Shown here: positions 29,298-61,341 of the stretch, one piece after another
Layout: each line of letters begins with the position of its first letter
Position numbering within the stretch: the stretch's first letter is position 1
Assembly: GCA_937124615.1 (NCBI GenBank)
Contig: CAKZKR010000097.1
Span: 8,697-72,696, forward strand
Length of the DNA stretch: 64,000 bases
Reading direction: 5' to 3'
Origin: an uncultured bacterium
GTDB taxonomy: Bacteria; Hydrogenedentota; Hydrogenedentia; Hydrogenedentales; Hydrogenedentaceae
Made by a program: the position numbers and the translations under genes
Notes under the pieces: generated by a model
Seen by the model: only the letters and a program-made list of their open reading frames with translations
Told to the model about the DNA's origin: nothing
Database searches by the model: none

Positions 29298-31835
29298 TTA
29301 TTCTGATTCTGAATCTTCTGAATTGTCAGGAGCGTTTTCAAAGAGGTCGCCGGTTTCTTCTTCGTTTTCTTCTGTATAAGAATTTTCAGGCATTTCTTCT
29401 TCCGACTCAGTTTTTTTGATGGCTTTATCCGCAGAGGCAATTTTAGCACCTTCACGAAGGTTCATTAGTTGTACTCCTTTTGTATTTCTGCCAATTACGC
29501 GGATGCTTCGAACCGGAATGCGTAGCATTTTCCCATCAGTTGCAACGACTACGATATCTTCATCATCGCTTACTGTAAGCATTGTGACAACATTTCCATT
29601 TCGTTCTTGTGTTTGAATATTAATAATACCTTTTCCTCCACGGTGTTGGATACGATATTCTTTTACTTCGGTTCGTTTGCCATATCCATTTTCGGTTACA
29701 GTGAGGACGGTAAGGTTATCTTTGGCTACGGAGACACCTACGACATAATCCTCTTTATCAAGACGGATTCCCACAACTCCCTGAGCCGTTCTTCCCATGG
29801 GACGGACATCTTTTTCGGGGAAGCGTATTGCAAGTCCTTTGTGAGTGGCTAAAAGTACATTGTCTATTCCTGATGTAACGAGTACATTGATAAGTTCATC
29901 ACCTTTTTCTAATGTGATTGCTTGAATACCTGTGGAACGAGGCTTACTATAAGAAGTTAAGGGTGTTTTTTTGACTAGACCTTTCTTTGTAACCATAAAG
30001 AGGTATTTGCTTTCATCTTTTAGGTTTTTAATAGATAGGAATGCAGTCACTTTTTCTTTGTCTCCGAGAGCCAGTAAGTTTTTAATATTTCTACCTCTTG
30101 CGGTTCTACCGGCCTCTGGAATTTCGTGAACTTTTCTCCAATATACACGACCTTCGTTGGTGAAGAACATCAGGTATTCATGTGCAGTTGCAGTGAAAAC
30201 ATGTTTAACGAAGTCATCTTCGGGTGTCTCCATCCCCATAACACCCTGTCCGCGTCGCCGTTGTTTTCGCGATGTGGTTTGAGGCATACGTTTTATGTAT
30301 CCCTGATTGGATACCGTTATAATCATGGCTTCGTCTGCAATAAGGTCTTCAATGTCGAAGTCTTCAATGTTTTCCAGAATCTCTGTCTTTCTCTCGTCTC
30401 CATATTTTTCTCGTATTTTTTCTACTTCTTTGCGGACTTCTGCAAGGATATTTTCTCTGCTGGAAAGTATGTGTTTTAATCTTTTGATTTCTTTAAGTAG
30501 GTTGTCGTATTCCTCCTGTAATTCTTTACGCTCTAATCCTGTTAACCTTCGTAATGGCATTGCGAGGATGGCTTTTGCTTGTTCAACGGAGATATCTAAT
30601 TTTTTACATAATTTTGTTTGTGCTTCTTCAGCATTTGCAGATTTTCGAATTAGGTTTATGACCTCATCAATTTGATCGATTGCTTTTAACAGACCCTCTA
30701 GAATATGGGCACGGCGTTCTGCCTGTTCTAAATCAAAACGGGTTCTTCGTTCAACAATTTCGGCACGGTACTGGACATAATGCTGAATCATGTCCTTAAG
30801 ATTTAATACGCGAGGAATATTATTTACTAATGCGAGGAAATGAATCCGTGATGTGTTTTGTAATTGTGTATGTTGGTAAAGTTGATTTAACACGACTTGA
30901 GGATTGACATCACTTTTAAGTTCGATGATTAAACGCATCCCCTCACGGTCGGATTCGTCTCTAAGGTCTGTTATTCCCAAGACTTTATTGTTTTCAACTG
31001 CTCTTGCTATTGATTCGATAACGGTCTGTTTCGTAACCTGGTAGGGTATTTCTTCAACGAGTAAACTTTTCTTTTTTGTTTTTTCTTGAGAAACGACTTT
31101 AATTCTTGCACGAAGTTTGACCTGTCCAGTGCCTGTACGATAAGCCCGACGGATACCTTCTTTACCACAGATAATGGCTCCTGTTGGGAAGTCTGGTCCG
31201 GGGACAATTTCCATAAAATCGTCGAGGGGGGCAGAAGGGTTGTCGATATAGTAAATAATTGCATTGCAGATTTCTGTCAGGTTGTGAGGGGGACAATCTG
31301 TTGCCATACCAACCGCGATACCATAAGAACCATTAACAAGGAGATTTGGGAAACCGGATGGGAGAACAATAGGCTCGTCGAGACGACCGTCGAAATTGGG
31401 TCGCATTTCGACTGTGTTCTTTTCTATATCGGTTAACATTTCTAAAGCGATGGGTGTTAATCGGGCTTCGGTGTAACGGTATGCTGCGGGACTGTCTCCG
31501 TCAATGGAACCGAAGTTTCCTTGCCCATCAACCATAGGATATCGCATGTTCCAATCTTGTGCTAAACGGACAAGTGCATCGTAAACAGCCTGGTCTCCGT
31601 GGGGATGGTATTTACCCAAGCATTCACCGACGATGGTAGCGCATTTTCGGTATGGGCGATTGGGTGTTAGTCCTAATTGATGCATCACATAGAGGATTCG
31701 TCTTTGAACGGGTTTTAATCCGTCACGAATATCGGGTAATGCCCGGCTTACAATTACGCTCATTGAATAGTCAAGAAAAGCGGATTGCATTTCTTGTTCA
31801 ATAGGGACTGGCTTTATGTTTTGATTCACCGCCAT
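29298..31835 (-). CDS. gyrA: DNA gyrase subunit A
   Basis: [30 protein letters not shown] (catalytic Tyr), six-blade CTD and acidic tail. Confidence 0.97.
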
Positions 31836-31873
31836 GTAATTTCTCCTAAGGTGTTTTGTATATCTGTTAGAGA

Positions 31874-34312
31874 TTAAATATCAAGATTTTGCACTTCAAG
31901 GGCATGTTTTTCTATGAAGTGGCGACGGGGTTCTACTTCGTCACCCATTAAAATGGTAAAGATTTCTTCCACAGAACTTTCATCTGCAATTTCTACTTTT
32001 AATAGGGTTCTTTTTTCTGGGTCCATCGTTGTCTCATAGAGTTGTTCTGCATTCATTTCTCCGAGACCTTTGTAGCGTTGGACAACAAGATCCTTTTTTC
32101 CTAATTCCATAAGGAAGTTTCGTAATTCCATCGGAGAGTCTGTTTCAAAAAGTATATTATTGTCTCTATTTTCTTTACTAAAGATCCGGAAAGGTGGAGA
32201 CCCGAGAGCATTTGCAGACTCATGCCAGTGAAGATAGGAAGAAAAGTCGGTGCTTTTTATAAAAGCGATATCGACCTGGTTGGGAAGTCGTGTAATTTTG
32301 CGGGTCGTATCAAGTTCTGTGTTTTCATTATCACTTTTTGGGATGATGGATGTATTTATAATTTCTTTTTCATCACCAAGAAGTTTTTTCCATTCTTTTT
32401 GTGTGATTGATTCCGGGTAGATTATTTTTTCACGAGGTAGTTCTTTTATTTTTTGCAATTCTTCAAGAGTTACGCCATAGATTTTATTTAATCGGTTAAT
32501 GACTTTTTCGAGATTTCGGATAGCTTCAATAGTTTTTATAAGCGTTCGAACCTGTATAAGTTTTTCTTCATTGGTTACTTCTCCATTACTGGATACAACC
32601 CGGACATTTTCCATAACTGTTTCGAGTATAAAGGATTCAAATTCATGTTCGGAATGGGTGTATCTTGATTTTTTGCCTTTCGAAATTCTATAAAGGGGAG
32701 GGAGTGCGATGTACAAATGTCCTTTCCGAATGAGTTCGGATGCATATCGAAAGAAGAAGGTCAATAGCAATGTTCGAATGTGGGAACCGTCAACATCCGC
32801 ATCGGTCATTATGATTACGCGATGGTAACGAAGATTATCGAGTGTAATTTCTTCTTTTGTTATGTCAATACCTAATGCCCTAAGTAAAGAAGCAATTTCT
32901 TTATTTTCAAGGACTTTGTGAAGACGACTTTTTTCAACATTGAGAACTTTTCCTCGCAGGGGAAGGATAGCCTGATATCGACGGTCTCTGCCTTGTTTTG
33001 CTGAACCACCTGCACTATCACCTTCTACGATAAATAACTCGCATAGTTCAGGATTGCGTTCAGAGCAGTCCGCTAATTTTGAGGCTTGTCCCAATGTGTC
33101 CAATGCGGATTTTCTACGAACGCGTTCTTTTGCTTTACGAGATTCTTCTCGTGCTTCTGCTGCTTCTAATACTTTGTCTGAAATTTGATTGGCTACACGA
33201 GGAGTCTGTTCGAAGTATTCTTGTAATGCACTGTAAACGATAGAATTGACAAGTCCTTGAACTTCGCTGTTCCCTAATTTATCTTTGGTTTGCCCTTCAA
33301 ATTGGGGATTTGGATGTCGAATAGAAACAACTGCGGTTAAACCTTCACGAGTATCATCGCCTGCAACAGAGAAATTTTTCTTTTTATTTAAGTTGTTCTT
33401 ATCTATCCAATCTGTAATACTGCGTGTTAAACCGCTACGGAAACCTGTAATGTGGGTTCCACCGCCGGGTGTGTGTATATTATTGGCAAAACTGATGACC
33501 TGTTCATAATAAGTCTTTACATATTGGATAGCTACTTCTACTTGTATATCATCTTTGCTTTTTGAAATAAAAATAGGCTTTGTGTGAATGGGATCCTTTC
33601 CTTTATTGAGATGTTTAACAAATTCTTCTAAACCGCCTTTGTATTGGAGGGTTAGGGGTTGTTCATCAGACCGTTCATCTGTAAATACAATTTTAAGTCC
33701 TGCGTTTAAGAATGCCAATTCTCTGAGACGATTGACTAAAATCTCGGATTGAAAAACGACATCTTCAAAAATATCGGGGTCGGGTAGAAAGGTAACGCGA
33801 GTCCCTGTTCCCTTCGCATTTCCTCTTGTTTCGAGAGGTGTAACAGTCTTTCCTCGTTCAAATGCCATGTAATAAATTTTGCCATCGCGTTTGACTTCAA
33901 CTTCCAGCCATTTGGATAAGGCATTGACGCAAGAGACCCCTACACCATGGAGCCCACCGGAAACTTTGTAAACACTGTGATTGAACTTTCCACCAGCATG
34001 GAGAACGGTTAAAACAACTTCTAATGCAGACTTCCCTCTATGAGTTCCATCTTTCATAGGGTCTACAGGGATCCCTCTTCCATTATCAATGACGGTAACG
34101 CTGTTATCGATGTGAATTGTTACATAAATGGTATCCCCGAATCCCGCCATGACTTCATCAACACTGTTGTCTACGACTTCGTAAACAAGATGATGTAATC
34201 CTCGAATTCCGGTATCACCAATATACATTGCGGGTCTTTTTCGAACTGCTTCCAGTCCTTCAAGAACACCAATTGCGTCGGCAGTATATGCATGAGAACC
34301 ATTTTCAGCCAT
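31874..34312 (-). CDS. gyrB: DNA gyrase subunit B (with long TOPRIM insertion)
   Basis: [62 protein letters not shown]. Confidence 0.97.
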
Positions 34313-34509
34313 GTGCTCCACCTTTCTTTATATAGTAGGAAAAAGTCTTTACTAGGCAAGGAATTAAGTGAGAGTATTATATCAAATTATGGGAGTTGAG
34401 AGCAATAAAAAAAGGAAAGAATTGAGTAAGAGATTGGAGGAAAAAACAAAATTTTGAGATAGTAATAGAATAGTTATAAATAGATATTAGATAGAAGTTT
34501 ATGAAAAAA

Positions 34510-34586
34510 TGGTGGGCGATACTGGACTTGAACCAGTGACCCCTTGCATGTCAAGCAAGTACTCTAACCACCTGAGCTAATCGCCC
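34510..34586 (-). tRNA. tRNA-Val (GAC)
   Basis: GGGCGATTAGCTCAGGTGGTTAGAGTACTTGCTTGACATGCAAGGGGTCACTGGTTCAAGTCCAGTATCGCCCACCA. Anticodon GAC, CCA encoded. Confidence 0.97.
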
Positions 34587-34610
34587 ACTCAATCATGATA
34601 GTAAATACAA

Positions 34611-34639
34611 ATTATATCAATCTATTGTTTTATTGTCAA
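34611..34639 (-). promoter_or_regulatory. Consensus sigma70 promoter for tRNA-Val
   Basis: TTGACA-17-TATAAT with an extended -10 TG. Confidence 0.85.
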
Positions 34640-34663
34640 ATTGTGTATATAAGAAAAAAAGTT

Positions 34664-36031
34664 CTAATTTTTTGTTAAGTCAACAGGTATTGCTTTTACA
34701 TTTTCTTTGTCTACTTGGAAAGGATATTTATTTTCAGGGAGAACTTTCACCTGTGTACAAATGCTGTAAGGGTTTCCGAAAGAGCCGGGAAAACGAACCT
34801 CGATGTAGTATGCAGTCCATCCTGTCTTGGGTTGGGGTAACTTTGTTTTGACTTTTCCTTTACCTTTTAGAGGTGTGCTTACCCATTTAGATTGTCTAAA
34901 ATCACGATTGTTCGAGTCTGCTTTCCATAAGTATGCTGTTCCTTGTGGATTATTTTCCCATTTAACTGTAATTGTATTTCTTTTAGAAATTTCCCATGAA
35001 ACGGAAGGAAACAATTTGTTTTCTTTTATCATTAAGAAAAATTCGGCTAATGTTGCAATCCCTGTAGGTGATGCATCGTGTCCGGTGTTGGCTTGATAAC
35101 ATAAATATTTTGGAGGGGGAAAATCGGGGAAATAAAGATTGGCAGAATCTACGGTCCAATAGGGGTCATTGGTGCCAAGGATAAGTAGTTTGGGTAGGGT
35201 AAGTGAATTTCTATAACTATAAGGGTCCACAATGCTTAGTAGTTGTTCTCCTTTGGTACTGTGCATCCGGTGGGGAATTTTTAGACGGGTGTAGTCTTCA
35301 ATTTCACTGCTGAAAGTTCCATAGCATTCTAGTTGATGGAACATTTGTCGTTTCATATTTAATACATCAATGACGGCGGGTGCGATGGCGACGACACGCG
35401 GGTCTCCTGTTGCGGATGTGAGCCATGTTGTCCAGCCTCTTTTAGAACCACCTGTAAGGACGAATCGGTTGATTTGGTGATTGTCTTTCTCTTTTTGAAC
35501 TAATTGGATAGTATCCATAGCGCGGATAGCACTTTTTACCATAGGGAGTAAGAGGGGCCATTCTTCCCCTTCTCCATTTAAGTATTTATCATAAGTATAG
35601 GCAATAATTTCGTCTTCATTTCTTCCATCGAAAAGAGGTTGATTAGGAACTTGTGAAAGAACAGCGATGACAGAATTGGTTTTTTGGGCTACCATTGTAG
35701 CAATTTTTAATTCTAAAGAATTTAGGTTGGGTTCTTTTTGTCGGTTTGACCCTCCACTAATGATGAGCATCGCTATGTCTGAATCTTTTACTTCAGGCGG
35801 ACACAATAAAACGAGCCAGTGTGTCCAGACAATGTTTTGCCATGTCTGTGATGTGAGTTGGATTATTTTTACTTTGCAACCTTGAAATTCTTTTGTGTCA
35901 ACAAGTTCGTATGAATATGTTGGGTCAGGTTTGCTCACATAACCTTTTAAATCAGCATGGGATGAGGATAATGTTAGAGTAAAGTTTGTAAGCAAGAGAA
36001 GCGAGATAATAAGTATTCTGGCTTTTTTCAT
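34664..36031 (-). CDS. pqaA: PqaA (PhoPQ-activated pathogenicity-related) family exported hydrolase-fold protein
   Basis: LTSQTW, W.HWL, QVPNQP, LPMVKSAIRAMD, GGSKRGWTTW, DPYW. AGGAG RBS before ATG 36031, signal peptide. Confidence 0.82.
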   Translation of the reverse strand: MKKARILIISLLLLTNFTLTLSSSHADLKGYVSKPDPTYSYELVDTKEFQGCKVKIIQLTSQTWQNIVWTHWLVLLCPPEVKDSDIAMLIISGGSNRQKEPNLNSLELKIATMVAQKTNSVIAVLSQVPNQPLFDGRNEDEIIAYTYDKYLNGEGEEWPLLLPMVKSAIRAMDTIQLVQKEKDNHQINRFVLTGGSKRGWTTWLTSATGDPRVVAIAPAVIDVLNMKRQMFHQLECYGTFSSEIEDYTRLKIPHRMHSTKGEQLLSIVDPYSYRNSLTLPKLLILGTNDPYWTVDSANLYFPDFPPPKYLCYQANTGHDASPTGIATLAEFFLMIKENKLFPSVSWEISKRNTITVKWENNPQGTAYLWKADSNNRDFRQSKWVSTPLKGKGKVKTKLPQPKTGWTAYYIEVRFPGSFGNPYSICTQVKVLPENKYPFQVDKENVKAIPVDLTKN

Positions 36032-36094
36032 AAAAAGTCTCCTATTCAAAGGTTTAATTAACTTTGTTAAGTAGGTTTTTATAAAGACAAAAAA

Positions 36095-45556: not shown

Positions 45557-47540
45557 TTATTTTATCCTTTTAATCTGTCCTTGTGTTATAAAAAGAGGAT
45601 AACCTTTTTTTAATGGGAGATTTAAATATTTGTTTTTACTATTTTCTAACACAATCTCACCCATGAGATTTTGAATTTTGACAGGTAATTCTGTAACGTG
45701 AACCTTCAAACATTTATCTTCTTTGGCTGACCAGAGAGTAAGGGTATTCCCCTGTTGAAAGGCTATGATGTTTTCTCCAAAGTCTGTTCGTATTTGGATA
45801 TTTTTATCTGCTAAATTTCTACAAATATTAGCACATGCTCTTAATGCAGGTTTCTGTGAGAAGTCCTGTCGAATAACTCCGAAATTAGATTCAAAATAAA
45901 AAAGGTCATCCCCATCGTTGCGGAAGTCATACCAACTTATATTCTGTACATCGCCCGAAGCGATAGCAGATAGGTAACATCTTGCAAATAGTAATGCCTG
46001 GTCTCGTTCTGTGGTCACATCTTTCCATAGATGGGTACTCCATCCCATTTCTGTAATCCATACGGGACGGTTTTGGACCTGTTGAGCAGTTTTTTTTAGT
46101 TCACTGATGAATTTTACTTCATCTAAATTTCTTCGGTAAGGATGGATCGTAAGAATATCAAAGGGTGTGTTTGCTTTTAGACAAAAGTCGATGAAATCGT
46201 TATCAATTCCTGAGGTAGAAATGGCCAATACTTTTGCATCTGGATCGGCTCTTTTGATGGCCTCATAACATTTTTTTACTAACTCGGGATATAGTTCTTC
46301 AGGGCCTTGCCAGAAAAAGATATTCGGTTCATTATAAATCTCCCAAAATTTAACTCGGTCTTTAAAATGATTTACAGTAACTTCTGTGAATCGGACGAAA
46401 TCTTCAATCCCTTTCAGGGTATAAGGTTCGGTCCATGAGGTCCAATAACACAATAATCCATATACGCTGATACCATATTTGTTGGCTGTGTTTACAATAA
46501 GGTCGTAGTATTCGAAATTAAATTTTCCGGGTTCTGGTTCAATATGTTCCCAATTAAATTCTTCCCGTGTCCATTTAATTCCGGCTTTGGATGCAAGTTC
46601 GGCAGCTTTTTCTCTATTTTGTTGGTCGGAACCATAGCGATACAAGTATAAACCCATGCCCCATGGAGAATTGGGCTTTAATGTGGAGTCTAATGGGACA
46701 TCAATTTCTTTAGAATAGGTGGAAACTGCAGAAAATGTTTTTCCATCGTTTCTTTTAAAAGTCCAATAAACTTCAATGAAATTTTTATCTTCAGGCATTT
46801 GTATCGGAATTTCTAAATAGACACTTTGTGCCGATGGGGGGATGGTTAATTTTTGGGAAGAAGAACTTAATGTTTTTTGTTCCCAATCTTTTAATTGAAT
46901 GGATAGTTCTCCGGAGACTTCTTTGTTCAGTAAGTTTGTAAAGGAGCAAGAAGAAAAAAGTTTTTCTACAGTGTTTTTATAGGTTTTAGAAACGAGGATA
47001 CACTCCTGATGGGATGGGATATCGGTTTCACAGATAAAGGACTGAATTTGTAATTGCAAAATGTCGCTTGGACATTGAGCCTTTTTTATTTGAAGTTGCC
47101 CGAATCTTAGTGGTGTCCTTACCTTTCCATCATTTTCACCAGAGTGGAATTCCCAGTTTTCCGGAGGGGCATTAAATTCGATAGTTTGTTCTCCGTACTG
47201 CAAGATGCAAACTTTTCTCTGGAAGTATTGGAAATGAGACACCAGTAGGATTTCCAGTTCACTTCCTGCAGAACTTGCCCAGAGTTTTAAAATGAATTTT
47301 TTAGGGGTCCCGTATATAGATAAAGAGGGATGGTTAAAACTAGCGGAAAAACCTTTCGTAAAATCAATCTCCCAAATAGGGTTTTTGAATGCAATTCCGG
47401 CAGATGTATAGATAATAGATAGAAAAAGGTTGAGTCTGTAGATTAATAAACTCGTATTGAATAGTTTGAACAGGTTCCTCTGCTGTACATTTCCACAAAA
47501 GGATTAGTCCTAAAGCGATTACAAGTTTTGTTTTTAACAT
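45557..47540 (-). pseudogene. Secreted clan GH-A glycoside hydrolase (GH39/GH5-like) with an apparent frameshift near the 5' end
   Basis: YNEPN acid/base and ITEMGW nucleophile. The signal-peptide ORF (ATG 47540, GAGG RBS) stops at 47364; the main frame is open from 47503 without a start codon until 47242. Confidence 0.7.
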
Positions 47541-47834: not shown

Positions 47835-47923
47835 TGTTGAATATTAGTTTTTATACAATTTAATAAACGAAAATAGAAAGTTGAAAATATTATATTTTTT
47901 GAATTTTAATTTAAACATATTAT

Positions 47924-47952
47924 TTGAGATTTAAGTAATATTTAAGTATAAT
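47924..47952 (+). promoter_or_regulatory. Sigma70 promoter of the small-peptide operon
   Basis: TTGAGA-17-TATAAT. Confidence 0.75.
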
Positions 47953-48055
47953 TAGTAACAATTGGTGTTTTTACTGGTAACATTAGAGAAAGTATATAAC
48001 TCCGATGGGAGGGGTTATATTATACCTAAACAAATTAACATTAAAGGAGTTAAAA

Positions 48056-48163
48056 ATGATATTAGCAGACATCTTAAACATTATTGTAAGTGTGTTCGTC
48101 AAGTTTTTTGCCGAATGGCTCATTGGTCAGTTGTTATCACTGTTCGGTGCAACAACATCCTAA
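48056..48163 (+). CDS. 35-aa leaderless amphipathic peptide (not in the ORF track)
   Basis: AAAGGAG RBS at 48043-48049. MILADILNIIVSVFVKFFAEWLIGQLLSLFGATTS. Confidence 0.8.
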   Translation: MILADILNIIVSVFVKFFAEWLIGQLLSLFGATTS

Positions 48164-48189
48164 ACCACTAACAGAAGGAGAGTAAAATA

Positions 48190-48312
48190 ATGGATTTCAA
48201 TTTAATCTTAAAAGAGATAATTGTAAAAGTAGTTAATTATCTGGCTGGTTTTGTCAGTAAAGTTATAACAGATTTCTTTTCTGCTTTAACAGGTAAAGAA
48301 CCTGTTGATTAA
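48190..48312 (+). CDS. 40-aa leaderless amphipathic peptide (not in the ORF track)
   Basis: AAGGAG RBS at 48175-48180. MDFNLILKEIIVKVVNYLAGFVSKVITDFFSALTGKEPVD. Confidence 0.8.
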   Translation: MDFNLILKEIIVKVVNYLAGFVSKVITDFFSALTGKEPVD

Positions 48313-48336
48313 TTTTTTTTTTGAAAATCTTATATT

Positions 48337-48373
48337 TGGCACATTGTGTAAATTCCACGATGTGCCATTTTTT
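48337..48373 (+). terminator. Intrinsic terminator closing the peptide operon
   Basis: 12-bp stem TGGCACATTGTG/CACGATGTGCCA (one G-U pair) with a T6 tail. Confidence 0.85.
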
Positions 48374-48387
48374 AAAAGAGATTTTTT

Positions 48388-49512
48388 ATGAAAAGAAGAG
48401 TTTTTCTGCAACGGTTATGTACAGCAATTCCATTGTTTAAAGGAATAGAATCAGTTTCTTCAGGAGAAGCGGGAATTCAAGAGGGAGAAAAGATAAACGA
48501 GCAATCAGATGCAAATAGTACAAAAGAAAATAATATTTGGAGGAGGTTTTTTGGTTTTAATTTGCTAAATTACTTTATGGTTCATGGGAAAAAGCCATTC
48601 GAAGAGGAGGAATTTGCCCTTATTCATCGCTTAGGATTTAATTTTGTACGATTGCCAATGGATTATCGTTGCTGGACCGATGAGAAGTCTCTATATCAGG
48701 TACGAGAAGAAGATTTAAAAGAGATAGATAAAGCCATAGAATTTGGAGAAAAGTATGGTACACATGTTTGTTTGAATTTTCATCGTGCACCCGGGTGGAC
48801 AGTAGCAAAACCGGAGGAACCAATGAATTTATGGGAAGAGGAAGAGGCACAAAAAATTTGTGGTTACCATTGGCAAATATTCACTAAACGATATAAAAAC
48901 GTTTCCCCAACAAAATTGAGTTTTAATTTGTTAAATGAGCCGGGAACTATATCTGCAGAAAAACATAAGACAGTTATAGGTAAGTTATTAGATGCTATTC
49001 GGAGCATAGATGAAAAAAGGACGGTTCATTGTGATGGAAGATTTTGGGGGGCTTTGCCTCCTATTGAACTTTCTGATTTAGGAATTGTTGCTAACTTGCA
49101 TATGTACCAACCTTTTCCAATTACCCATTATAAAGCATCATGGGCTGGCAAATGGGAAAATGTTCCTGTTCCTGATTATCCTTATAAGGAGGGGGAATTT
49201 ATGTGGAATAAAGAAGGTATTCGAGAGAGAATTATAAAACCATGGAAGAACCTTGAAGATAGAGGGGTCCCTGTTTTTGTTGGTGAATTTGGAGCATTTA
49301 ATCAAACTCCTCATAGAGCGGTAATGCTATGGTTGGAGGATACCCTGGATTTGTTTGGAGAGCTGGGATGGGGATGGTCTATGTGGAACTTTATGGGTGC
49401 CTTTGGACCAATTAATTCTGGTAGGAGTGATGTCGTATATGAAGATTGGGAAGGACATAAGATTGACAGGCAAATGTTAAACTTGCTTCAGAGGTTTTCA
49501 AGTAAAAAGTAG
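48388..49512 (+). CDS. GH5 (cellulase family) glycoside hydrolase with a Tat-like signal
   Basis: MKRRVFLQ, GFN, FNFVRLP, NLLNEP acid/base, HMY and VGEFG nucleophile. Confidence 0.9.
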   Translation: MKRRVFLQRLCTAIPLFKGIESVSSGEAGIQEGEKINEQSDANSTKENNIWRRFFGFNLLNYFMVHGKKPFEEEEFALIHRLGFNFVRLPMDYRCWTDEKSLYQVREEDLKEIDKAIEFGEKYGTHVCLNFHRAPGWTVAKPEEPMNLWEEEEAQKICGYHWQIFTKRYKNVSPTKLSFNLLNEPGTISAEKHKTVIGKLLDAIRSIDEKRTVHCDGRFWGALPPIELSDLGIVANLHMYQPFPITHYKASWAGKWENVPVPDYPYKEGEFMWNKEGIRERIIKPWKNLEDRGVPVFVGEFGAFNQTPHRAVMLWLEDTLDLFGELGWGWSMWNFMGAFGPINSGRSDVVYEDWEGHKIDRQMLNLLQRFSSKK

Positions 49513-49570
49513 TTGGTTAAAAATCTATTTATGTAAGTGGGCTATATAACAGGATAGAAAGGAAAGAGAA

Positions 49571-51568
49571 ATGGAGAGATTATTTTTTATGCGAGTATAT
49601 ACCTTTATTCTTCTTATTATCTTTTCTTTTCCAATGTATTCGGAAGATGTTCCCTATTATCTTGATGAAGATTGGGAATCATTAAGTCCCAATTGGACGG
49701 ATGGGGTTATAACATCTATTGTTGCTGATAATAGCGGCAATTTATATTGTGGAGGTTCTTTTACCACGATAAATGGTGTGTCTATAAAACGAGTAGCCCG
49801 ATGGAACGGAACGCAATGGCAGACGATGGGGGGTGGTTTTGATAATGGTGCGGTAGAGAAAATGGCTATAACAACGGTAGGGACGATTTATGCTGTGGGT
49901 TCTTTTACCCGTTCGGGAATGACACAATTGAATCGAGTTGCGAAGTGGAATGGTTCAAGTTGGACTGCTGTGGGCAGTGGCTTTAATGATGTCGTATATA
50001 CAGTAACTGTGAGGAGTGATGGGGTTGTCTTTGTTGGAGGGAAATTTACACAATCGGGTTCAACAGCGATAAATCGGATCGCATATTGGAATGGTTCCCA
50101 ATGGGTAGAACCGTATTCTGGTGTCAGTGGAGGTCTTTCTCCTTATGTTTTATCTCTAACATCAGATTCTGCTGGAAATATTTATGTGGGAGGACAGTTT
50201 CAGTATGCGGGGGCATTTTCTGCCTCTAATATAGCGAAATGGGATGGAACACAATGGTCTTCTCTTGGCAGTGGTACTAATGGACCTGTGTATTCTCTGG
50301 CTGTGGATGAAACAGGAAAGTTGTATGTTGGAGGGAATTTTACCAGGGCGGGAGGAGTTGATGTAAATAATATTGCAATTTGGAATGGTTCATCGTGGAG
50401 TTCTTTGATGGGGGGAGCGAATGGGATAATTTTTTCAATTGTGCCGCAAACGGCACAATCTGTTTTTATAGGAGGTAATTTTTCTTATGTGGGGGGAGGG
50501 GTGAGTTCTAATGGATTAGCATGGTGGTATTCTAATAACTGGCGAAGTGTAACCTCAGGAGTAAGTGGTTCGAATAAAGAAATCAGGGGGTTAATATTAG
50601 ATACGCAAGGGAATCTGTGTGTATGCGGAGATTTTTATATGGCGGGCGGAAATATAAGTTATAAAGTTGCGAGGTTAAAGCGTCCTCCTGTGTTTACCTT
50701 AGTTTATACGGCTGGTATAGGGGGGCGTATCTCTGGAAATTTGATACAGAGTGTGATGCGTGGGAACAATGGAACTGAGGTGATAGCAGTTCCTGATAGC
50801 GGGTATCAGTTTGATCGTTGGTCTGATGGTTTATTGTCGGCGAACAGGGTGGATATAAATGTAACAGAGAATAAGAACATAGTCGCATATTTTATTGTGT
50901 TAAGCGAGGGTTATTTTGAAGGGGAAGGGAGTATGGAGGGAGTCTCAGAGGGAAGTGTAGAAGGAATTTCCGAAGGGGAAGGGTTCGTGGAAGGTATAAT
51001 GGAAGGTATTCCAGAGGGAGTTGAAGAGGGGACGATAGAGGGTGAAGGGAGTGTAGAAGGTATTCCAGAGGGAGTTGAAGAGGGAATAATAGAGGGTGAG
51101 GGAATCATGGAAGGTGTTCTTGAAGGTAATTATGAAGGGACGATAGAAGGTGAAGGGAATATAGAAGGAGAGATGAATTTTAGAGCATGGATAGAGGGGG
51201 ATACATATATTCATAAAGTTGTAGGTGAAACACATACTTTTTCTGTTTCTGTTGAAGGCTCATATGGAGAGGTTTTTTATGAATGGTATTATTGTAAAGA
51301 TTTCTTGTGTTTAAATCCTTTGAGAATTACAAATGTAATTGGTCAGGAGTTGAGTTTGGAGGATTTGTCTATTGAGGATTCGGGCTGGTATTGGTGTCAG
51401 GTGTCGGACTATCGGGATGTGGTAGAGACACAGAAAGTTTATTTGTATGTCTCGTACGGATTAAGTGTAGGTATCGTTCCATTTGTATGTATTGTACTTG
51501 TTGTATCTTTTGTTTTTACACTTCAAAGAAACAAAATGTTTAGTAAATGTGATAAATGCTCTTATTGA
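49571..51568 (+). CDS. Cell-surface protein: beta-propeller repeats, InlB-B-like repeat, EG acidic stalk, Ig-like domain, C-terminal TM anchor
   Basis: Repeated (IA)xWNGxxWxxxGxG.NG.V units, AVPDSGYQFDRWSDG, EG repeats, DSGWYWC.V and a terminal hydrophobic helix with a basic tail. Confidence 0.85.
   Translation: MERLFFMRVYTFILLIIFSFPMYSEDVPYYLDEDWESLSPNWTDGVITSIVADNSGNLYCGGSFTTINGVSIKRVARWNGTQWQTMGGGFDNGAVEKMAITTVGTIYAVGSFTRSGMTQLNRVAKWNGSSWTAVGSGFNDVVYTVTVRSDGVVFVGGKFTQSGSTAINRIAYWNGSQWVEPYSGVSGGLSPYVLSLTSDSAGNIYVGGQFQYAGAFSASNIAKWDGTQWSSLGSGTNGPVYSLAVDETGKLYVGGNFTRAGGVDVNNIAIWNGSSWSSLMGGANGIIFSIVPQTAQSVFIGGNFSYVGGGVSSNGLAWWYSNNWRSVTSGVSGSNKEIRGLILDTQGNLCVCGDFYMAGGNISYKVARLKRPPVFTLVYTAGIGGRISGNLIQSVMRGNNGTEVIAVPDSGYQFDRWSDGLLSANRVDINVTENKNIVAYFIVLSEGYFEGEGSMEGVSEGSVEGISEGEGFVEGIMEGIPEGVEEGTIEGEGSVEGIPEGVEEGIIEGEGIMEGVLEGNYEGTIEGEGNIEGEMNFRAWIEGDTYIHKVVGETHTFSVSVEGSYGEVFYEWYYCKDFLCLNPLRITNVIGQELSLEDLSIEDSGWYWCQVSDYRDVVETQKVYLYVSYGLSVGIVPFVCIVLVVSFVFTLQRNKMFSKCDKCSY
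50906..51172 (+). repeat. Glu-Gly coding repeats, including two near-identical 54-nt units at 51002-51109
   Basis: EGIPEGVEEGTIEGEGSV followed by EGIPEGVEEGIIEGEGIM. Confidence 0.9.
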
Positions 51569-51600
51569 GAGTAACAACAAATATAGATGGAGACTCTTGT

Positions 51601-54003
51601 ATGGGAAGATATTTTCTTTTGAGAGTATGCCTATTGTGTATTTTACTGCTTCTCAGATTGATCGCCAATGCGGAAGTGGATAATTCTTTTTGGGAATTGA
51701 AGGATTTTAAAATTTTCCTTATTGGAGATGAAAAAAATGAAGTATTAAATAGTGCGGTTCGAGTTCTTCTTGAGGAAGTTGAGAAACGAACCCATGTTAC
51801 TTTAGAAAAATCTCAGGGACTTTTTCCCAATTCGGACTGTATATTATTGACGGATATTAATTCTCTAAAGAAATCAGATGTTTTTAAGGAATATTCAGAA
51901 TCTTTTGCAAAAGACAGATTGCATGGGCTTAAACCCGAAGGTTTCGTTATCCTTAGTGAACAAGTTCAAAACGGGAATTTTAGAATTTGGATTATAGGAT
52001 GTGATAAGCGGGGAATTTTATTTGGTGTGGGGAAATTATTACGAATGATGATTTATTCTCCGAATTCACTGAAAATAAAAACTCCTTTGGATATTATAGA
52101 AGTTCCTGTATCCCCTATACGAGGGCATCAATTGGGGTATCGAGCAAAGGCAAATTCTTATGATGCGTGGACTGTGGAACAATATGAACAATATATACGG
52201 GAATTGACATTTTTTGGTGTTAATAGTATTGAGAACATTCCATTTCAAGATGAACGAGAAGCATCTTTAATGCCTGTTTCCCGGAAGGAAATGAACCGTG
52301 CTATAAGTGAAATATGTAAAAGGTATGGGTTGGATTACTGGGTTTGGACACCTGCAGATTTTGATTTGAAAGATAAGGAGAAACGGGAGAATATGCTGAA
52401 AAGGCACGAGGAATTATATAAAGATTGTCCTGCTTTAACGGGGGTATTTTTCCCGGGAGGGGATCCGGGAGATAATTCACCGGAATTGGTTATGCCATTT
52501 TTGGAGGATTTGTCAAAATTATTAATTCCCATACATCCGGATGCGAAGATATGGTTATCATTGCAAGGGTTTTCAACAACACAGGCGAAATTTGTTTTTG
52601 ATTATTTAAAGAATAAAAAACCTGAATGGATGGGAGGGCTTTGTGAAGGTCCTTCCAGTCCTCCTATAGCATATTTGCGACAGAATTTACCAGAGGAATA
52701 CAAACTGCGAATGTATCCGGATATAACACATAATAAACTTTGTCAGTATCCTGTGCCCTGGTGGGATATTGCATTTTCGTCTGTGATTGGGAGGGAAGGA
52801 ATTAATCCACGACCTATTCAGTATGCCTATATTCATAATTGGTTTCAACCTTACTGTAATGGTTTTATTACTTATTCGGATGGTGTTCATGATGATATAA
52901 ATAAAGTGATTTGGAGTGCAATGGGATGGAATCCTGAACAGAAGGTTCGTGATGTATTAATTGAATATTCTAATGTATTTTTTAGTACGGATATTGCGGA
53001 ATTGGCAGCGGAAGGAATTTTAGCGTTGGAAAACAACTGGCGTGGGAGTATTGTAGATAATGGGGCGATTGAAGGGACTTTGAAGTTATGGCAGGAGTTA
53101 GAACAAGAAGCCCCAGAGTTGCGGGACAATTGGAGATGGCAGATGTGTTTGGTTCGTGCTTATTATGATGCTTATATTCGGAGAAAGGTGATTTATGAGC
53201 AAGATCTGGAAGAAGAGGTAAATCAGATATTACGCGATGTAGAAAAAATAGGAACCGAAAAAGCAATACAGGAATCGATGGTTATTTTGAATAGAACAAT
53301 AACAGATCCTATTGGAATAGATTTGAAAGAAAAAATTATAGATTTATATGATGCATTATTTAAAAGTATAGGCTTGCAATCGAGTGTAGAGAAGTATAAA
53401 GCCAGTGGAGGAGAAAGGGGAGCCTCGTTAGATTACATTGATATTCCTTTAAATAACCGCTGGTGGTTAGAAGATCAGTTTAATGAAATACGACAATTAA
53501 ATTCGGAGGGAGAAAAGGTAAATCGATTAAAGGCTATTGGTTTTTGGGAGACTCCTGGATATGGTTCTTTTTATGATGATGTTGGGAATACAGCGAAATC
53601 ACCTCATATAAAAAGGTGTGAGATTCGTTATACAAATCCTGCGGAAGAGGCATGGCAAGAACCTACTTTATGGTGGTTTGATAATGGTAAGAGTAGAAAA
53701 CGAATTTCATGGTTGAGTTCATTAGAACATGGCGAGGCTTTATACCAAGGATTGGAGGCTGGATCTCAATATATACTTCGTATTACAGGTTTTGGAAAAC
53801 CACATATTATAATTGATGAGAGGAAATTAGATAGCCTTGACGAAAAGGGAATAGAATTGGGTGAGTTTAAAGAGTATGTTGTCCCTTTGGATTGTGTTGA
53901 GGATAGAGAAATTACTGTGAAATGGACACTTCCAGTGGACGATTTAAAAAAGAATTGGAGACAGCAATCCCGGATTTGTGAGATGTGGCTACTAAAACAA
54001 TAG
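51601..54003 (+). CDS. Large exported hypothetical protein with a GH20/GH67-like N-terminal domain
   Basis: GGAG RBS before ATG 51601, signal peptide. L.PEGF.I...I.I.G.D.RG.LFGVG.LLR, followed by P...RG.QLGYR. Confidence 0.65.
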   Translation: MGRYFLLRVCLLCILLLLRLIANAEVDNSFWELKDFKIFLIGDEKNEVLNSAVRVLLEEVEKRTHVTLEKSQGLFPNSDCILLTDINSLKKSDVFKEYSESFAKDRLHGLKPEGFVILSEQVQNGNFRIWIIGCDKRGILFGVGKLLRMMIYSPNSLKIKTPLDIIEVPVSPIRGHQLGYRAKANSYDAWTVEQYEQYIRELTFFGVNSIENIPFQDEREASLMPVSRKEMNRAISEICKRYGLDYWVWTPADFDLKDKEKRENMLKRHEELYKDCPALTGVFFPGGDPGDNSPELVMPFLEDLSKLLIPIHPDAKIWLSLQGFSTTQAKFVFDYLKNKKPEWMGGLCEGPSSPPIAYLRQNLPEEYKLRMYPDITHNKLCQYPVPWWDIAFSSVIGREGINPRPIQYAYIHNWFQPYCNGFITYSDGVHDDINKVIWSAMGWNPEQKVRDVLIEYSNVFFSTDIAELAAEGILALENNWRGSIVDNGAIEGTLKLWQELEQEAPELRDNWRWQMCLVRAYYDAYIRRKVIYEQDLEEEVNQILRDVEKIGTEKAIQESMVILNRTITDPIGIDLKEKIIDLYDALFKSIGLQSSVEKYKASGGERGASLDYIDIPLNNRWWLEDQFNEIRQLNSEGEKVNRLKAIGFWETPGYGSFYDDVGNTAKSPHIKRCEIRYTNPAEEAWQEPTLWWFDNGKSRKRISWLSSLEHGEALYQGLEAGSQYILRITGFGKPHIIIDERKLDSLDEKGIELGEFKEYVVPLDCVEDREITVKWTLPVDDLKKNWRQQSRICEMWLLKQ

Positions 54004-58616: not shown

Positions 58617-60011
58617 ATGTCTTTTCAAACAGAAGAATCTTTATGGATTCGGGTTTTAGACCATCTTGAAGGTATATTAGAACCTCATATTTGTGAGCAT
58701 TGGTTTTCTCATGTTTCGTTTAGTGGATTTGATGGAGAGCGTATTGTTCTTTCTGTCCCTAATGAGTTTTTTCTCTGCTGGTTAAGGGAACGCTATGGGG
58801 CCGTTTTGGACGATGCTGTTCGTCAAGTATTTCAAAAGGAGGTTCCGATTGATTTTTGTATCCGGCCGGAGGAAAATTCAAAAACTGTAGCGGAAAAAGA
58901 TGTTGTAAAATCTGTGAAAGCGTTACCTGTGGAGAAAATTGAAAGAAAAAATAGTTCAATACAAAGTACGGGACAAAATGGATTGCGGTTAAATCCAAAT
59001 TACACTTTTGAAAATTTTGTGGTAGGTCATGGAAATGAGTTTGCGTATGCGGCTGCAAAGGCTGTTTCAGAGAGTCCTGGTAGAAATTACAACCCGCTGT
59101 TTATTTACGGTATGACAGGTCTGGGGAAGACCCACCTGATGCAGGGGATTGGACATCAATTGCTTCGTAGAGATAGTTCTAAAAAGGTAATGTATGTCAC
59201 ATCGGAAGAATTTACAAACGAATTAATTATGAGTATATCTGAGGGTAGTCAGTCAAGGTTTCGGGGCAAATATCGCAAAGTAGATATATTGCTTATTGAT
59301 GATATTCATTTTATTGCTGAAAAAGAAGCCACACAGGTTGAGTTTTTCCATACCTTTAATGAGTTATTCGACCAGCATAAACAGATTGTACTTTCGTCAG
59401 ATAGAAGTCCTAAAGAGATGCGAGGAGTAGAAAGCCGACTGGTATCGCGGTTCGAATGGGGATTGGTAGCCGATATACAACCCCCTGATTTTGAGACGCG
59501 GGTTGCTATCTTAAAAAGTAAGATGATGCAGAAAGGATATGAGTTAGATGATGTTATATTAGAATATATAGCAAAGTCTGTTACTTCCAATGTGCGTCAG
59601 TTGGAAGGGGCTTTAACAGGGGTTATTGCTTTGATGAAACTTCGGGGAAATGGCTCTATAACATTAGAGCAAGCGGAACAGGTTGTTCGGGATATAGAAG
59701 ACCGAAATCAAGTCCCCTGTATTACTCCCGAATCGATATTTCGGGCTGTGGCTGAAGTGTTTGATGTACGTTTAGTTGATTTAAGGGGAAGATGTAGGAA
59801 GAAACAGTATGTATTACCCCGTCAAATAGGGATGTATTTGTGCCGGTTATTAATTCCCAGTCTTTCACTGAGCTATATTGGGGAGTTATTTGGAGGGAAA
59901 GACCATACAACAGTTTTGCATTCCTGTGAGAGAGTAGAACAGGAATTGCAGAAAAAAGGTGAAACTTATCGATTGGTAGAATCGTTATTAAAGAAATTAA
60001 AAGGTGAATAA
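58617..60011 (+). CDS. dnaA: Chromosomal replication initiator DnaA
   Basis: YTFENFVVG, NPLFIYG.TGLGKTHL, LLIDDIHF, RL.SRFEWGL, NVRQLEGAL, PRQIGMYL, GGKDHTTV. Confidence 0.97.
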   Translation: MSFQTEESLWIRVLDHLEGILEPHICEHWFSHVSFSGFDGERIVLSVPNEFFLCWLRERYGAVLDDAVRQVFQKEVPIDFCIRPEENSKTVAEKDVVKSVKALPVEKIERKNSSIQSTGQNGLRLNPNYTFENFVVGHGNEFAYAAAKAVSESPGRNYNPLFIYGMTGLGKTHLMQGIGHQLLRRDSSKKVMYVTSEEFTNELIMSISEGSQSRFRGKYRKVDILLIDDIHFIAEKEATQVEFFHTFNELFDQHKQIVLSSDRSPKEMRGVESRLVSRFEWGLVADIQPPDFETRVAILKSKMMQKGYELDDVILEYIAKSVTSNVRQLEGALTGVIALMKLRGNGSITLEQAEQVVRDIEDRNQVPCITPESIFRAVAEVFDVRLVDLRGRCRKKQYVLPRQIGMYLCRLLIPSLSLSYIGELFGGKDHTTVLHSCERVEQELQKKGETYRLVESLLKKLKGE

Positions 60012-60074
60012 ATTCAGGAAATATCAATATAAAAACTTGAAAAATTGGAATAAAATTAATTATAGAAGTGGTTA

Positions 60075-60103
60075 TTGACTTAATGAGATAAATGTGCTAT
60101 AAT
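60075..60103 (+). promoter_or_regulatory. Sigma70 promoter of def-recR
   Basis: TTGACT-17-TATAAT with an extended -10 TG. Confidence 0.8.
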
Positions 60104-60177
60104 AGGGCAATTTTTTACGGTTTATAAAAGGTCTGTTTTTAAGATAAACAATTATTATTAGATAGAAGGATTTGATG

Positions 60178-60693
60178 ATGGCGATTTTAGATTTAGTTTT
60201 GTATCCGGATGACCCATTAACATCCGTTGCGGAACCTTTTGACCGCATTACATCCGATGTGATGGATTTAGCTCAGGATATGTTTGAGACAATGATAGCC
60301 TATGAAGGAGTCGGTTTAGCTGGACCGCAGGTAGGAATTCCCAAACAAATTATGGTTGTGCACGAGCCAGAAACCAAACCTATGTGTCTCATTAATCCGA
60401 CTCTAATTTTGCAAGGCGAACGCATTGAGGGAGAAGAAGGGTGTTTGAGTTTACCAAAAATTTATGCTGTAGTACCTCGTGCCTCACGGATTAAAGTTAA
60501 AGCATATAGTCCACGGGGGAAAAAATTAGAATTTGAAGCAGAAGATTTTTTAGCCCGGATTATTCAGCATGAATATGACCATTTGCAAGGAATGATTTTC
60601 TTAGATCGTATTGATATTATTACTCGTGAAGAAAAATACCAGGAATGGTTTGAAATTCGAAAGAAACTTTTGTCAGAAGTACAGCAGGGTTAG
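60178..60693 (+). CDS. def: Peptide deformylase
   Basis: GVGLAGPQVG, EGCLS and QHEYDHL motifs. Confidence 0.96.
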   Translation: MAILDLVLYPDDPLTSVAEPFDRITSDVMDLAQDMFETMIAYEGVGLAGPQVGIPKQIMVVHEPETKPMCLINPTLILQGERIEGEEGCLSLPKIYAVVPRASRIKVKAYSPRGKKLEFEAEDFLARIIQHEYDHLQGMIFLDRIDIITREEKYQEWFEIRKKLLSEVQQG

Positions 60694-60735
60694 TAATTTA
60701 TTAAAATAAATAAAGGTTAATGGCTATTTTTTTCA

Positions 60736-61341
60736 ATGCTTTATAATAATGAGTTGTTTGAGACTTTAGTTAATGCATTTCGTAAATTACCCGGGGTGGG
60801 AAAAAAAACGGCCGAAAGGTATGCTCTACATATTTTATCTTCCACTGAAGATGAAGTAAAAGAGTTCGTAGAAACGGTTTCCCAGATGAGAAAAAAAATA
60901 AGGCGTTGTCCGGAGTGTCAAGATTTTAGCGATACAGAACCATGTGCTATATGTGCATCATCGGAGAGAAATGGTGAATTGCTTTGTGTTGTTGAAAAGC
61001 CTTCGGGAGTGATGGCCATTGAGCGTTCAGGGGCCTATCGTGGAAAATACTATGTTTTGAATGGACTGTTAAGTCCGTTGGATGGGATTGGTCCAGAAGA
61101 ATTAGGGTTGTCGCAATTATTTAAGAAGGTAATTTCAAATAAGGTCAAAGAAATTATTATTGCCACAAGTGCGACAAGTGAAGGGGAAGCGACTGCATTA
61201 TATATAGCACATCAATTAAAACCGTTGGGGATAAATGTTACCAGAATTGCTCATGGTGTTCCTATGGGTGCGGGACTTGAATTAACAGATGATTATACTT
61301 TAAGGCAGGCTATGGATGGTCGAAAACCTTTAGATATATGA
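60736..61341 (+). CDS. recR: Recombination mediator RecR
   Basis: LPGVGKKTAER HhH, C4 zinc finger CPEC..CAIC, TOPRIM VVE..EGEATA, RIAHG.P.G. Confidence 0.95.
   Translation: MLYNNELFETLVNAFRKLPGVGKKTAERYALHILSSTEDEVKEFVETVSQMRKKIRRCPECQDFSDTEPCAICASSERNGELLCVVEKPSGVMAIERSGAYRGKYYVLNGLLSPLDGIGPEELGLSQLFKKVISNKVKEIIIATSATSEGEATALYIAHQLKPLGINVTRIAHGVPMGAGLELTDDYTLRQAMDGRKPLDI

Follow-up and report, generated by a model that had tools for sequence, protein, structure and literature searches.

A conserved pair of predicted amphipathic peptide genes upstream of a GH5 glycoside hydrolase in Candidatus Hydrogenedens

The two-peptide locus and its conservation

The DNA considered here is a 64-kb window (the whole stretch of 64,000 nucleotides that was analysed, to which all coordinates refer) from an uncultured bacterium of the Hydrogenedentaceae, contig CAKZKR010000097.1. 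On its plus strand, between 47924 and 48373, lies a compact unit of two small open reading frames (ORFs), P1 and P2, directly upstream of a gene for a family 5 glycoside hydrolase (GH5). P1 (48056..48163 including the stop codon) encodes 35 aa, MILADILNIIVSVFVKFFAEWLIGQLLSLFGATTS, and P2 (48190..48312) encodes 40 aa, MDFNLILKEIIVKVVNYLAGFVSKVITDFFSALTGKEPVD. Orthologues of P1 with 33–39 aa occur in every related locus, and P2 falls into five protein clusters of 70–100% identity, all of 40 aa. P1 is preceded by the Shine-Dalgarno (SD) sequence AAAGGAG (48043..48049) and P2 by AAGGAG (48175..48180); in relatives, (A)AAGGAG is kept 6–8 nt before the P1 ATG and AGGAG(G) is kept in all intercistronic spacers. 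A sigma-70-type promoter, TTGAGA-17-TATAAT (47924..47952, 11/12 matches), opens the unit and an intrinsic terminator (48337..48373, with its stem-loop at 48337–48367; 12-bp stem, 7-nt loop, T6) closes it. Promoter, ribosome-binding sites, both ORFs and terminator are located where a preliminary description of this DNA had put them, and the 5′ leader, which comes to ~97 nt assuming a transcription start ~7 nt past the −10 element, agrees with the ~95 nt given there.

Look-ups in genomes, in metagenomes and guided by GH5 recovered 17 distinct P1/P2 pairs, with the genome scan contributing seven loci and the metagenome scan nine, all at 68–90% identity. The order is always P1 followed by P2 with a spacer of 14–50 nt, each ORF has its own AGGAG, and every contig that bears P2 has a P1 orthologue directly upstream. 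Nei-Gojobori counts over six lineages gave proportions of synonymous (pS) and nonsynonymous (pN) differences of 0.73 and 0.10 for P1 (pN/pS 0.14) and 0.67 and 0.12 for P2 (pN/pS 0.18). Third positions dominate the differences by codon position, which number 61/42/246 in P1 and 131/33/260 in P2. As synonymous sites are near saturation, it is the amino-acid sequences that selection preserves. By this substitution pattern P1 and P2 are genuine translated genes under purifying selection, and the search of related genomes and metagenomes that had been proposed for the locus has thereby returned conserved pairs rather than chance ORFs.

The conservation extends over both peptides. P1 shows no variation at D5, W21 and L29-F30-G31 and only a change to R at K16; its C-terminal tail varies and is short and rich in Ser/Thr. 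In P2, F3, L7, K13, Y17, G20, F29-F30 and L33-T34-G35-K36-E37-P38 are invariant though their codons change synonymously, and the LTGKEP motif is the same in 17 P2 lineage variants. An RNA hairpin lying within the P2 3′ end (48286–48308) was considered and rejected. Its pairing is lost in two related loci, L001 and L009 (such numbers denote related loci throughout), so it is the amino-acid sequence that is constrained there. The acidic residue of P1 at position 20 (AEWLxG; window 48113–48127) has moved to position 24 (AGWLTE/D) in L008, L016 and L017, E20 becoming G as G24 becomes E or D (alignment A4). This is a shift of one helical turn along the same face. Exceptions are L031, which is acidic at neither position, and L033, which combines D20 with K24. 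Between L018 and the window, identity is 73% for P2, 66% for P1 and 54% for the adjacent GH5. Constraint on the peptides thus equals or exceeds that on the enzyme next to them, a pattern more in line with specific helix packing than with a generic detergent-like effect.

The start of P1 requires some care in annotation. A 52-aa extended form beginning at 48005 was rejected, as its ATG lies in the loop of the leader hairpin and is followed by a stop in L001, whereas the SD-led ATG at 48056 is conserved; a search with the 52-aa form matched one protein cluster. Public gene callers predict P2 and sometimes P1, always without a name, and annotation pipelines currently skip or mis-start P1. The earlier remark that the unit is invisible to ORF prediction therefore holds only in part. 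P1 and P2 are unnamed in every source searched.

The family has a narrow distribution. P2 is an exact match to a gene on the NCBI contig DAIPKU010000001.1 of a metagenome-assembled genome (MAG; GCA_036769585.1), and the related loci belong to Candidatus Hydrogenedens terephthalaticus, Ca. Hydrogenedens sp. and Hydrogenedentota bacterium entries. The window itself belongs to a Ca. Hydrogenedens MAG from wastewater. The family occurs only in Ca. Hydrogenedens and its near relatives, which come mainly from digesters and sludge. An exhaustive HMMER search with the P2 profile against 1.84 billion representative proteins returned its own cluster only. Sequence searches of Pfam, NCBIfam, PHROGs and PDB gave nothing significant for either peptide, plasmid, phage and viral-contig searches gave no match to them, and neither has a paralogue within the window. 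As far as these searches reach, P1 and P2 are an orphan family without relatives outside the clade, in keeping with the earlier suggestion of an undescribed family in a poorly studied phylum. Two contigs (L019, CAZZMK010000116.1, and L020, CAZJTZ010000024.1) from MAGs titled 'uncultured Nitrospirales bacterium' carry a Hydrogenedens-type locus in full synteny (NadE, glycoside hydrolase, P1, P2, GH5). These contigs are probably mis-binned or their MAGs mislabelled.

Expression signals and the link to GH5

The promoter is the top-scoring match in a 2-kb scan. At the cut-off of 9/12 matches the scan found eight promoter-like sites against 8.1 expected from shuffles, which is no enrichment, and the weight of the promoter call accordingly comes from match quality and from its conserved position in relatives rather than from scan statistics. 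Relatives have a 10–12/12 match at the same position, and in the close clade the −10 element ends 103–111 nt before the P1 ATG. Just 5′ of the −35 element is an A/T-rich near-palindromic block, ATATTTTTTGAATTTTAATTTAAACATA (47892..47919, plus strand), conserved in the Hydrogenedens-clade alignment, with its core ATTTTAATTTAAA kept across the clade. This block may be an UP element or a regulator site.

The leader contains a hairpin at 47994..48020, which RNAfold predicts as a 10-bp stem with one U-G pair and a 7-nt loop flanked by the core UAUAACUCC / GGGGUUAUA (UAACUCC and GGAGUUA in the RNA). It had been described as bulged. Its position stands, but RNAfold gives no bulge in the window and a 1-nt bulge appears only in L002. 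The hairpin occurs in 10 related leaders and in L036, a divergent locus discussed below, and lies 59–70 nt before the P1 ATG in the nine of the 10 for which the distance was measured. Across the alignment 93% of cells are paired and two pairs have changes on both sides, although this covariation is not significant (56/500 shuffles reach the observed level). The pairing is real, its covariation statistically weak. The L018/L019/L033 group, with its short leaders, lacks the hairpin, and Rfam has no family matching the leader or the terminator. The hairpin could be a stabiliser or a protein-binding site. The leader motif can be written as a TTGACA-type promoter leading into AACTCCAATGTGAGGAGTT. 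Both SD sequences are strong and lie outside the conserved hairpin, and in the minimum-free-energy fold of the window that of P1 sits in the loop of a weak 5-bp stem.

GH5 (48388..49512, plus strand; Pfam PF00150, E = 1e-25) is a cellulase-family enzyme with a twin-arginine (Tat) signal, MKRRVFLQRL, containing the KRRVFLQ motif. It lies directly 3′ of the pair in every lineage, including L036 with its different upstream neighbour. The T-run of the terminator stops 14 nt short of the GH5 ATG in the window and 2–25 nt short of it in relatives, and there is no promoter-like site (≥9/12) on the plus strand between 48063 and 48388. As the terminator abuts the GH5 start and leaves no room for a promoter, GH5 is probably transcribed by read-through from the peptide unit. 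The unit would then not stand alone but form the over-expressed front part of a GH5 operon. The terminator itself appears to be kept by selection, since relatives show compensatory changes in it (GGCACA..TGTGCC vs AGCACA..TGTGCT) and L031, L033, L019 and L038 have a non-homologous hairpin with a T-run at the same site. In Ca. Hydrogenedens sp. KM4344-31 (L017:6140-6248) the terminator in the P2–GH5 gap is tandemly duplicated, with two 43-nt copies that are 98% identical and 66 nt apart.

A promoter, leader, small ORFs, terminator and structural gene in this order form the classical layout of an attenuator, and the terminator not only abuts GH5 but is preceded by a stretch that can pair with the GH5 SD region in the fold of the window. 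P1 and P2 might on this basis be mainly regulatory upstream ORFs, whose translation tunes read-through of the terminator or translation of GH5. This explanation is very improbable. Amino-acid conservation runs the whole length of both ORFs, and pN/pS values of 0.14–0.18 go far beyond the needs of a regulatory leader peptide. The P2 stop is ~24 nt before the terminator stem, which is beyond the reach of a terminating ribosome, and neither two separate strong SD sequences nor an amphipathic design has a role in attenuation. In S. aureus, where a small ORF likewise precedes a secreted enzyme gene, SAL1 translation is reported to be unchanged by lspU mutation (PMC12607899).

A different set of peptides is found on the same platform in L036 (L036:1388-1950, a Logan SRR27730033 contig). 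This locus combines a perfect TTGACA-17-TATAAT promoter and the leader hairpin seen in the window with a terminator-like hairpin, a GH5 gene whose product is 60% identical to that of the window, and the propeller gene, and its upstream neighbour is an acyl-CoA dehydrogenase. Its two SD-led small ORFs would encode 42 and 59 aa and score ~0–2 bits against the P1 and P2 profiles, and these putative peptides are also leaderless, Cys-free and anionic. Lineages equally distant in GH5 (54–58% identity) retain recognisable P1 and P2, which argues that both peptides were replaced jointly in L036. On the evidence of this single contig, the peptide cargo seems to have been exchanged on a conserved platform.

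In the window and most relatives, the gene order around the pair is NaPRT and NadE, a minus-strand glycoside hydrolase with a Sec signal, P1, P2 and the Tat-signal GH5, usually followed by a signal-peptide β-propeller/InlB-repeat protein. In the window (48388–54003) the two proteins that follow GH5 (665 and 815 aa) and the upstream glycoside hydrolase have Sec-type signal peptides. Given these and the Tat signal of GH5, the peptide genes head a cluster of exported proteins. Neither the 815-aa protein nor a 436-aa protein has a Pfam domain. The upstream glycoside hydrolase gene (45557–47540, minus strand) is split in the window. A 58-aa ORF (47364–47540) holds the signal peptide and the first conserved residues, and a 561-aa ORF (45557–47242) continues in another frame, where relatives have one ORF of 659–665 aa. 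As three independent assemblies (L010–L012) share this split, it is probably a real frameshift or pseudogene and not an assembly error.

On a larger scale, the window contains recF-like, gyrA, gyrB, dnaA, peptide deformylase (def) and recR genes (27890–36049 and 58617–61341). It is origin-proximal core chromosome, with high gene dosage, in which the peptide locus is single-copy, syntenic and not on an accessory island. Two adjacent small proteins with prepilin-type N-terminal methylation motifs (type IV pilin or pseudopilin-like) are encoded at 1633–2660, and a type II secretion T2SS-F/PilC gene lies near the locus in L001 and L013. Taken together, they hint that the organism may possess a pilus or a type II secretion apparatus.

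Peptide chemistry and comparison with known systems

AlphaFold2 predicts P1 as a single continuous helix (residues 2–34; predicted local distance difference test, pLDDT, 90) and P2 as a helix over residues 3–34 (pLDDT 84) with a free GKEPVD tail. Both place a polar residue every 3–4 positions, and the polar or small residues form a stripe composed of D5, N8, S12, K16, E20 and G24 in P1 and of K8/E9, K13, D/N16, G20, S23/K24, T27/D28 and S31 in P2. The hydrophobic periodicity peaks at 90–95 degrees, corresponding to an i, i+4 stripe. Calculation of the hydrophobic moment, another check proposed beforehand, gave best 18-residue values of 0.45 for P1 and 0.53 for P2, which only 1–2% of shuffles reach; comparable values are 0.46–0.48 for the β-type phenol-soluble modulins (PSMs) of staphylococci and 0.50 for TisB, an E. 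coli type I toxin. In the window each peptide has a net charge of −1, no Cys and no signal or double-Gly leader. These features, like the polar spacing, are as the preliminary description had them. Across all 17 pairs the net charge is 0 to −4 and never positive. P1 tails are neutral and Ser/Thr-rich or acidic, the P2 tail GKEPVD has a net charge of −1, and the second residues (I, and D or N) predict that the initiator Met is kept. The structure predictions and moments together support the view that both products are leaderless amphipathic helices.

The two peptides differ in their hydrophobicity. P1 has a grand average of hydropathy (GRAVY) of 1.51, which is above PSM-β, δ-toxin and the other PSMs compared except PSM-α4. 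Insertion energies were approximated on the translocon scale for the best 19-residue window, with values from Hessa et al. 2005, and on this approximate scale are +3.8 kcal/mol for P1, +7.5 for P2, +2.0 for TisB and +7.7 for PSM-β1. The small membrane proteins AcrZ, MgtS and CydX fall at −2.9 to −0.7 kcal/mol on the same scale. As the approximate values of P1 and P2 are positive by comparison, neither peptide is a classical single-pass anchor. P1 is physically TisB-like and P2 PSM-β-like. The motif IL.(.)IIV.V had been taken as shared between the two peptides, but it does not make them kin, as BLASTP gives no alignment between P1 and P2 and hhalign a probability of 24%.

PSM-β1 and PSM-β2 are the closest general counterparts of the pair. 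They too are encoded by tandem genes in the core genome, have ~40–44 aa, lack a signal peptide, and are α-helical and amphipathic with a charge of ~−1; P2 resembles PSM-β1 in its hydrophobic moment and approximate insertion energy, and by predicted structure and moment P1 and P2 are short amphipathic signal-less helices as PSMs are. There is no sequence relation, however. No Pfam or NCBIfam model of PSM-α, PSM-β (Staph_haemo) or δ-lysin matches at E ≤10, P1 and P2 are not paralogues whereas PSM-β1 and PSM-β2 are, P1 and P2 are each predicted as one long helix, and their host belongs to another phylum and is probably a diderm cell. The resemblance to PSMs, δ-toxin and leaderless bacteriocins from which the study of this locus set out is therefore one of design, with kinship unsupported. 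In PSM systems the exporter is encoded elsewhere, and in staphylococci the psm genes are unlinked to pmt. The missing neighbour is hence not decisive, although the earlier remark that no exporter or immunity gene is adjacent can be extended, as no ABC (ATP-binding cassette) transporter or immunity-like gene was found anywhere in the 64-kb window.

These likenesses raise the question of whether the peptides are exported. Lacking a signal peptide, they could be released by an unlinked ABC-type exporter or be carried along with the Tat substrate, and serve outside as surfactant, matrix or amyloid, for example to hold or organise secreted GH5 on the cell surface. The general description as PSM-β, the P2 scale values close to those of PSM-β1, the strong expression signals with their own terminator, neighbours that all have export signals, and a cargo swap in L036 that resembles the diversity of secreted-peptide loci all speak for such a role. 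A precedent is given by LspU and LspD of S. aureus, PSM-like peptides co-transcribed with the secreted lipase SAL1, of which LspU leaves through the PSM exporters and traps lipases on the surface of the cell (PMC12607899). The PSM exporter PmtCD is credited with producer immunity as well (PMC12623860). As at the present locus, the transcript of a secreted hydrolase also encodes LspU and LspD as small amphipathic helices, an SD-led ORF precedes the enzyme gene, and the peptides are kept throughout a genus and were overlooked by annotation (PMC12607899). They differ in being 21 aa long and flanking the enzyme gene, whereas here peptides of 35 and 40 aa are both encoded upstream with a terminator between them and the enzyme; the peptides are not homologous, a Tat-signal GH5 takes the place of the lipase, and trapping has been shown for LspU only.

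The evidence against export is of several kinds. Besides the lack of a match to PSM models and of an ABC transporter in the window, the conservation of all helix faces and the invariant LTGKEP tail fit specific packing better than detergent-like action, and P1 is more hydrophobic than PSM-β, δ-toxin and the compared PSMs save PSM-α4. The organism is probably diderm, in which case release would require crossing two membranes, and we know of no PSM-like system in a diderm bacterium. Overall, export with a role outside the cell is an unlikely if credible explanation, and the main alternative to the one preferred below. A broader version would see the consensus promoter, leader hairpin and terminator as a platform that heads a glycan-degrading operon with interchangeable leaderless anionic amphipathic peptide pairs, exported through an unlinked exporter or by hitch-hiking on the Tat-signal GH5 to organise or retain secreted enzymes at the surface of a diderm. 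This proposal is decidedly improbable, but if true it would take PSM/LspU-type systems beyond the Firmicutes for the first time, here with two components.

P1 on its own is nearest to TisB (29 aa) in length, hydrophobicity, polar-stripe geometry and approximate insertion energy. Both form a single long helix with ~26–28% polar residues and charges confined to a narrow strip (PMC8309996), the GRAVY of TisB is 1.62 against 1.51 for P1, and both have a small positive approximate insertion energy. As a hydrophobic peptide of less than 60 aa with a putative membrane helix of 33 residues, P1 has the general build of a type I toxin. In a toxin-antidote, holin-like or type I toxin module, P1 would dissipate the proton motive force in the manner of TisB and be held in check by P2 or by an unseen RNA, controlling dormancy, lysis or the release of envelope enzymes. 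Tandem amphipathic toxin and antidote peptides exist in entericidin A/B, and a small hydrophobic peptide gene just 5′ of a glycoside hydrolase gene recalls the holin-endolysin order.

The remaining evidence makes such a module very doubtful, though not the least probable of the explanations considered. Synonymous sites are saturated throughout both ORFs (pS 0.67–0.73), which means that no conserved overlapping antisense RNA or promoter constrains them, and the only antisense promoter-like site at ≥9/12 is a single 9/12 match inside P2; a trans-encoded RNA would escape both observations. In contrast to the TisB system, the locus shows no sign of an antisense RNA or of SOS-type control. Its SD sequences are strong and fall outside the conserved hairpin of the leader, and its near-consensus promoter runs directly counter to the tight repression typical of type I toxins. 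Cationic C-terminal residues are a feature of described type I toxins (PMC8309996), whereas the tails of P1 and P2 are neutral or acidic, and P1 further differs from TisB in its obligatory second peptide and in the lack of homology. The locus is single-copy and syntenic in the core chromosome without a paralogue in the window, GH5 belongs to a cellulase family widespread in cellular genomes and is not a muralytic phage enzyme, and no PHROG, phage or viral-contig match was found.

Two co-transcribed leaderless helical peptides of ~40 aa that always occur together are also reminiscent of leaderless two-peptide bacteriocins, which would kill competitors. As in that group, the tandem ORFs open at the mature N-terminus, each under its own SD sequence. 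Examples are enterocins L50A/B, MR10 and DD14, whose two peptides act together (PMC6131525), and the different cargo of L036 would suit such a role. These enterocin peptides are, however, paralogous, cationic (+7) and Trp-rich, and their genes are flanked by transport and immunity genes, whereas the neighbours here are glycoside hydrolases, NAD-salvage genes and a β-propeller protein, with no immunity or transporter gene within 64 kb. Every leaderless bacteriocin tabulated in PMC6131525 has a charge of +2 to +7 and a pI >10, as opposed to 0 to −4 in 17/17 P1/P2 pairs. No bacteriocin hidden Markov model matches, the locus was not found on plasmids, and it is a strongly conserved core locus under purifying selection instead of a variable accessory island. 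A bacteriocin is consequently a highly unlikely identity for the pair.

Class IIb two-peptide bacteriocins consist of unrelated side-by-side helices that pack through small-xxx-small motifs, and have double-glycine leaders and cationic charge. Similar ladders can be recognised in P2 (A19-S23-T27-S31-G35) and P1 (G24xxxS28). Entericidins A and B are likewise encoded as side-by-side small helices and are lipoproteins with a signal peptide and Cys. P1 and P2 differ from both groups in having no double-glycine leader, cationic charge, signal peptide or Cys. The unit resembles known leaderless amphipathic peptide systems, but membership of any of them is unsupported.

Three further identities were considered and rejected. 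The Tat signal of GH5 prompted a comparison with TatA/TatB and a split TatA, proteins that have a short N-terminal membrane helix, an FG hinge and then a basic amphipathic helix. There is no match to PF02416 (MttA/Hcf106) at E ≤10, and the invariant LFG of P1 at 29–31 follows a 28-residue helix with no basic helix after it, so that the geometry is wrong. A light-harvesting-type pair, suggested by pufBA-like tandem peptides with a hairpin, can be set aside since His ligands are missing and the organism is non-phototrophic. A precursor of ribosomally synthesised and post-translationally modified peptides does not fit, as the whole helix is conserved, the tail after LFG has only 2–8 residues and no modifying enzymes are encoded nearby.

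A putative helix pair in the producer's envelope

The explanation that is tentatively preferred, at a confidence that falls somewhat short of an even chance, is a self-contained membrane-active two-helix module heading the GH5 operon and acting in the producer's own envelope. The near-consensus promoter, structured leader and two strong ribosome-binding sites would drive synthesis of two unrelated leaderless peptides, each folding as an α-helix of ~32 residues with a broad hydrophobic face and a narrow polar stripe. As a self-contained pair the two helices would partition into the lipid bilayer and pack on each other through their polar and small-residue stripes to give a hetero-oligomeric helical bundle. 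The terminator after P2 would pass only a fraction of transcripts into the Tat-exported GH5, and the peptides would thus be made in large excess over GH5 from one transcription unit. Their site of action may be the cell's own envelope, tied to the exported GH5 and β-propeller proteins, with the membrane of a rival cell being less likely. High expression, read-through, membrane insertion, heteromer formation and site of action are all inferred steps of this model.

Several observations are consistent with such an envelope module. In L036 both peptides are replaced together while promoter, hairpin and GH5 are kept, which points to a module whose specificity lies within the pair. The linkage to GH5 survives the change of upstream neighbour in the same locus, and the same-face compensation at P1 positions 20 and 24 occurs in three lineages.

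Other observations count against it. Covariation between the peptides is not demonstrable with so few lineages, the net charges of P1 and P2 vary in parallel and not in a complementary fashion, and both peptides lack the flanking positive charges that membrane proteins usually have. If a TisB-like helix is made constitutively and in quantity, harm to the cell is to be expected unless it is neutralised by P2 or by an unseen exporter. Read-through into GH5 is deduced solely from the lack of space for a promoter, and the linkage to GH5 could be inherited gene order, as upstream synteny is broken only in L036, one contig. Finally, Hydrogenedentota have no cultured member (PMC11406978).

No part of bacterial proteomes is less charted than proteins of <50 residues, and this locus is a clean case validated by sequence alone, with two orphan genes under strong purifying selection, conserved expression signals and a link to an exported glycoside hydrolase. 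The operon link with GH5, conservation of the peptides at or above that of the enzyme and the cargo variant in L036 are new beyond the preliminary description. The distribution is narrow. If the peptides are membrane-active partners of the enzyme cluster, the LspU/PSM idea would reach a distant, probably diderm phylum and an anionic two-helix design would join the known repertoire. If they are ordinary small membrane proteins, they would still constitute a well-defined new family for annotation pipelines.

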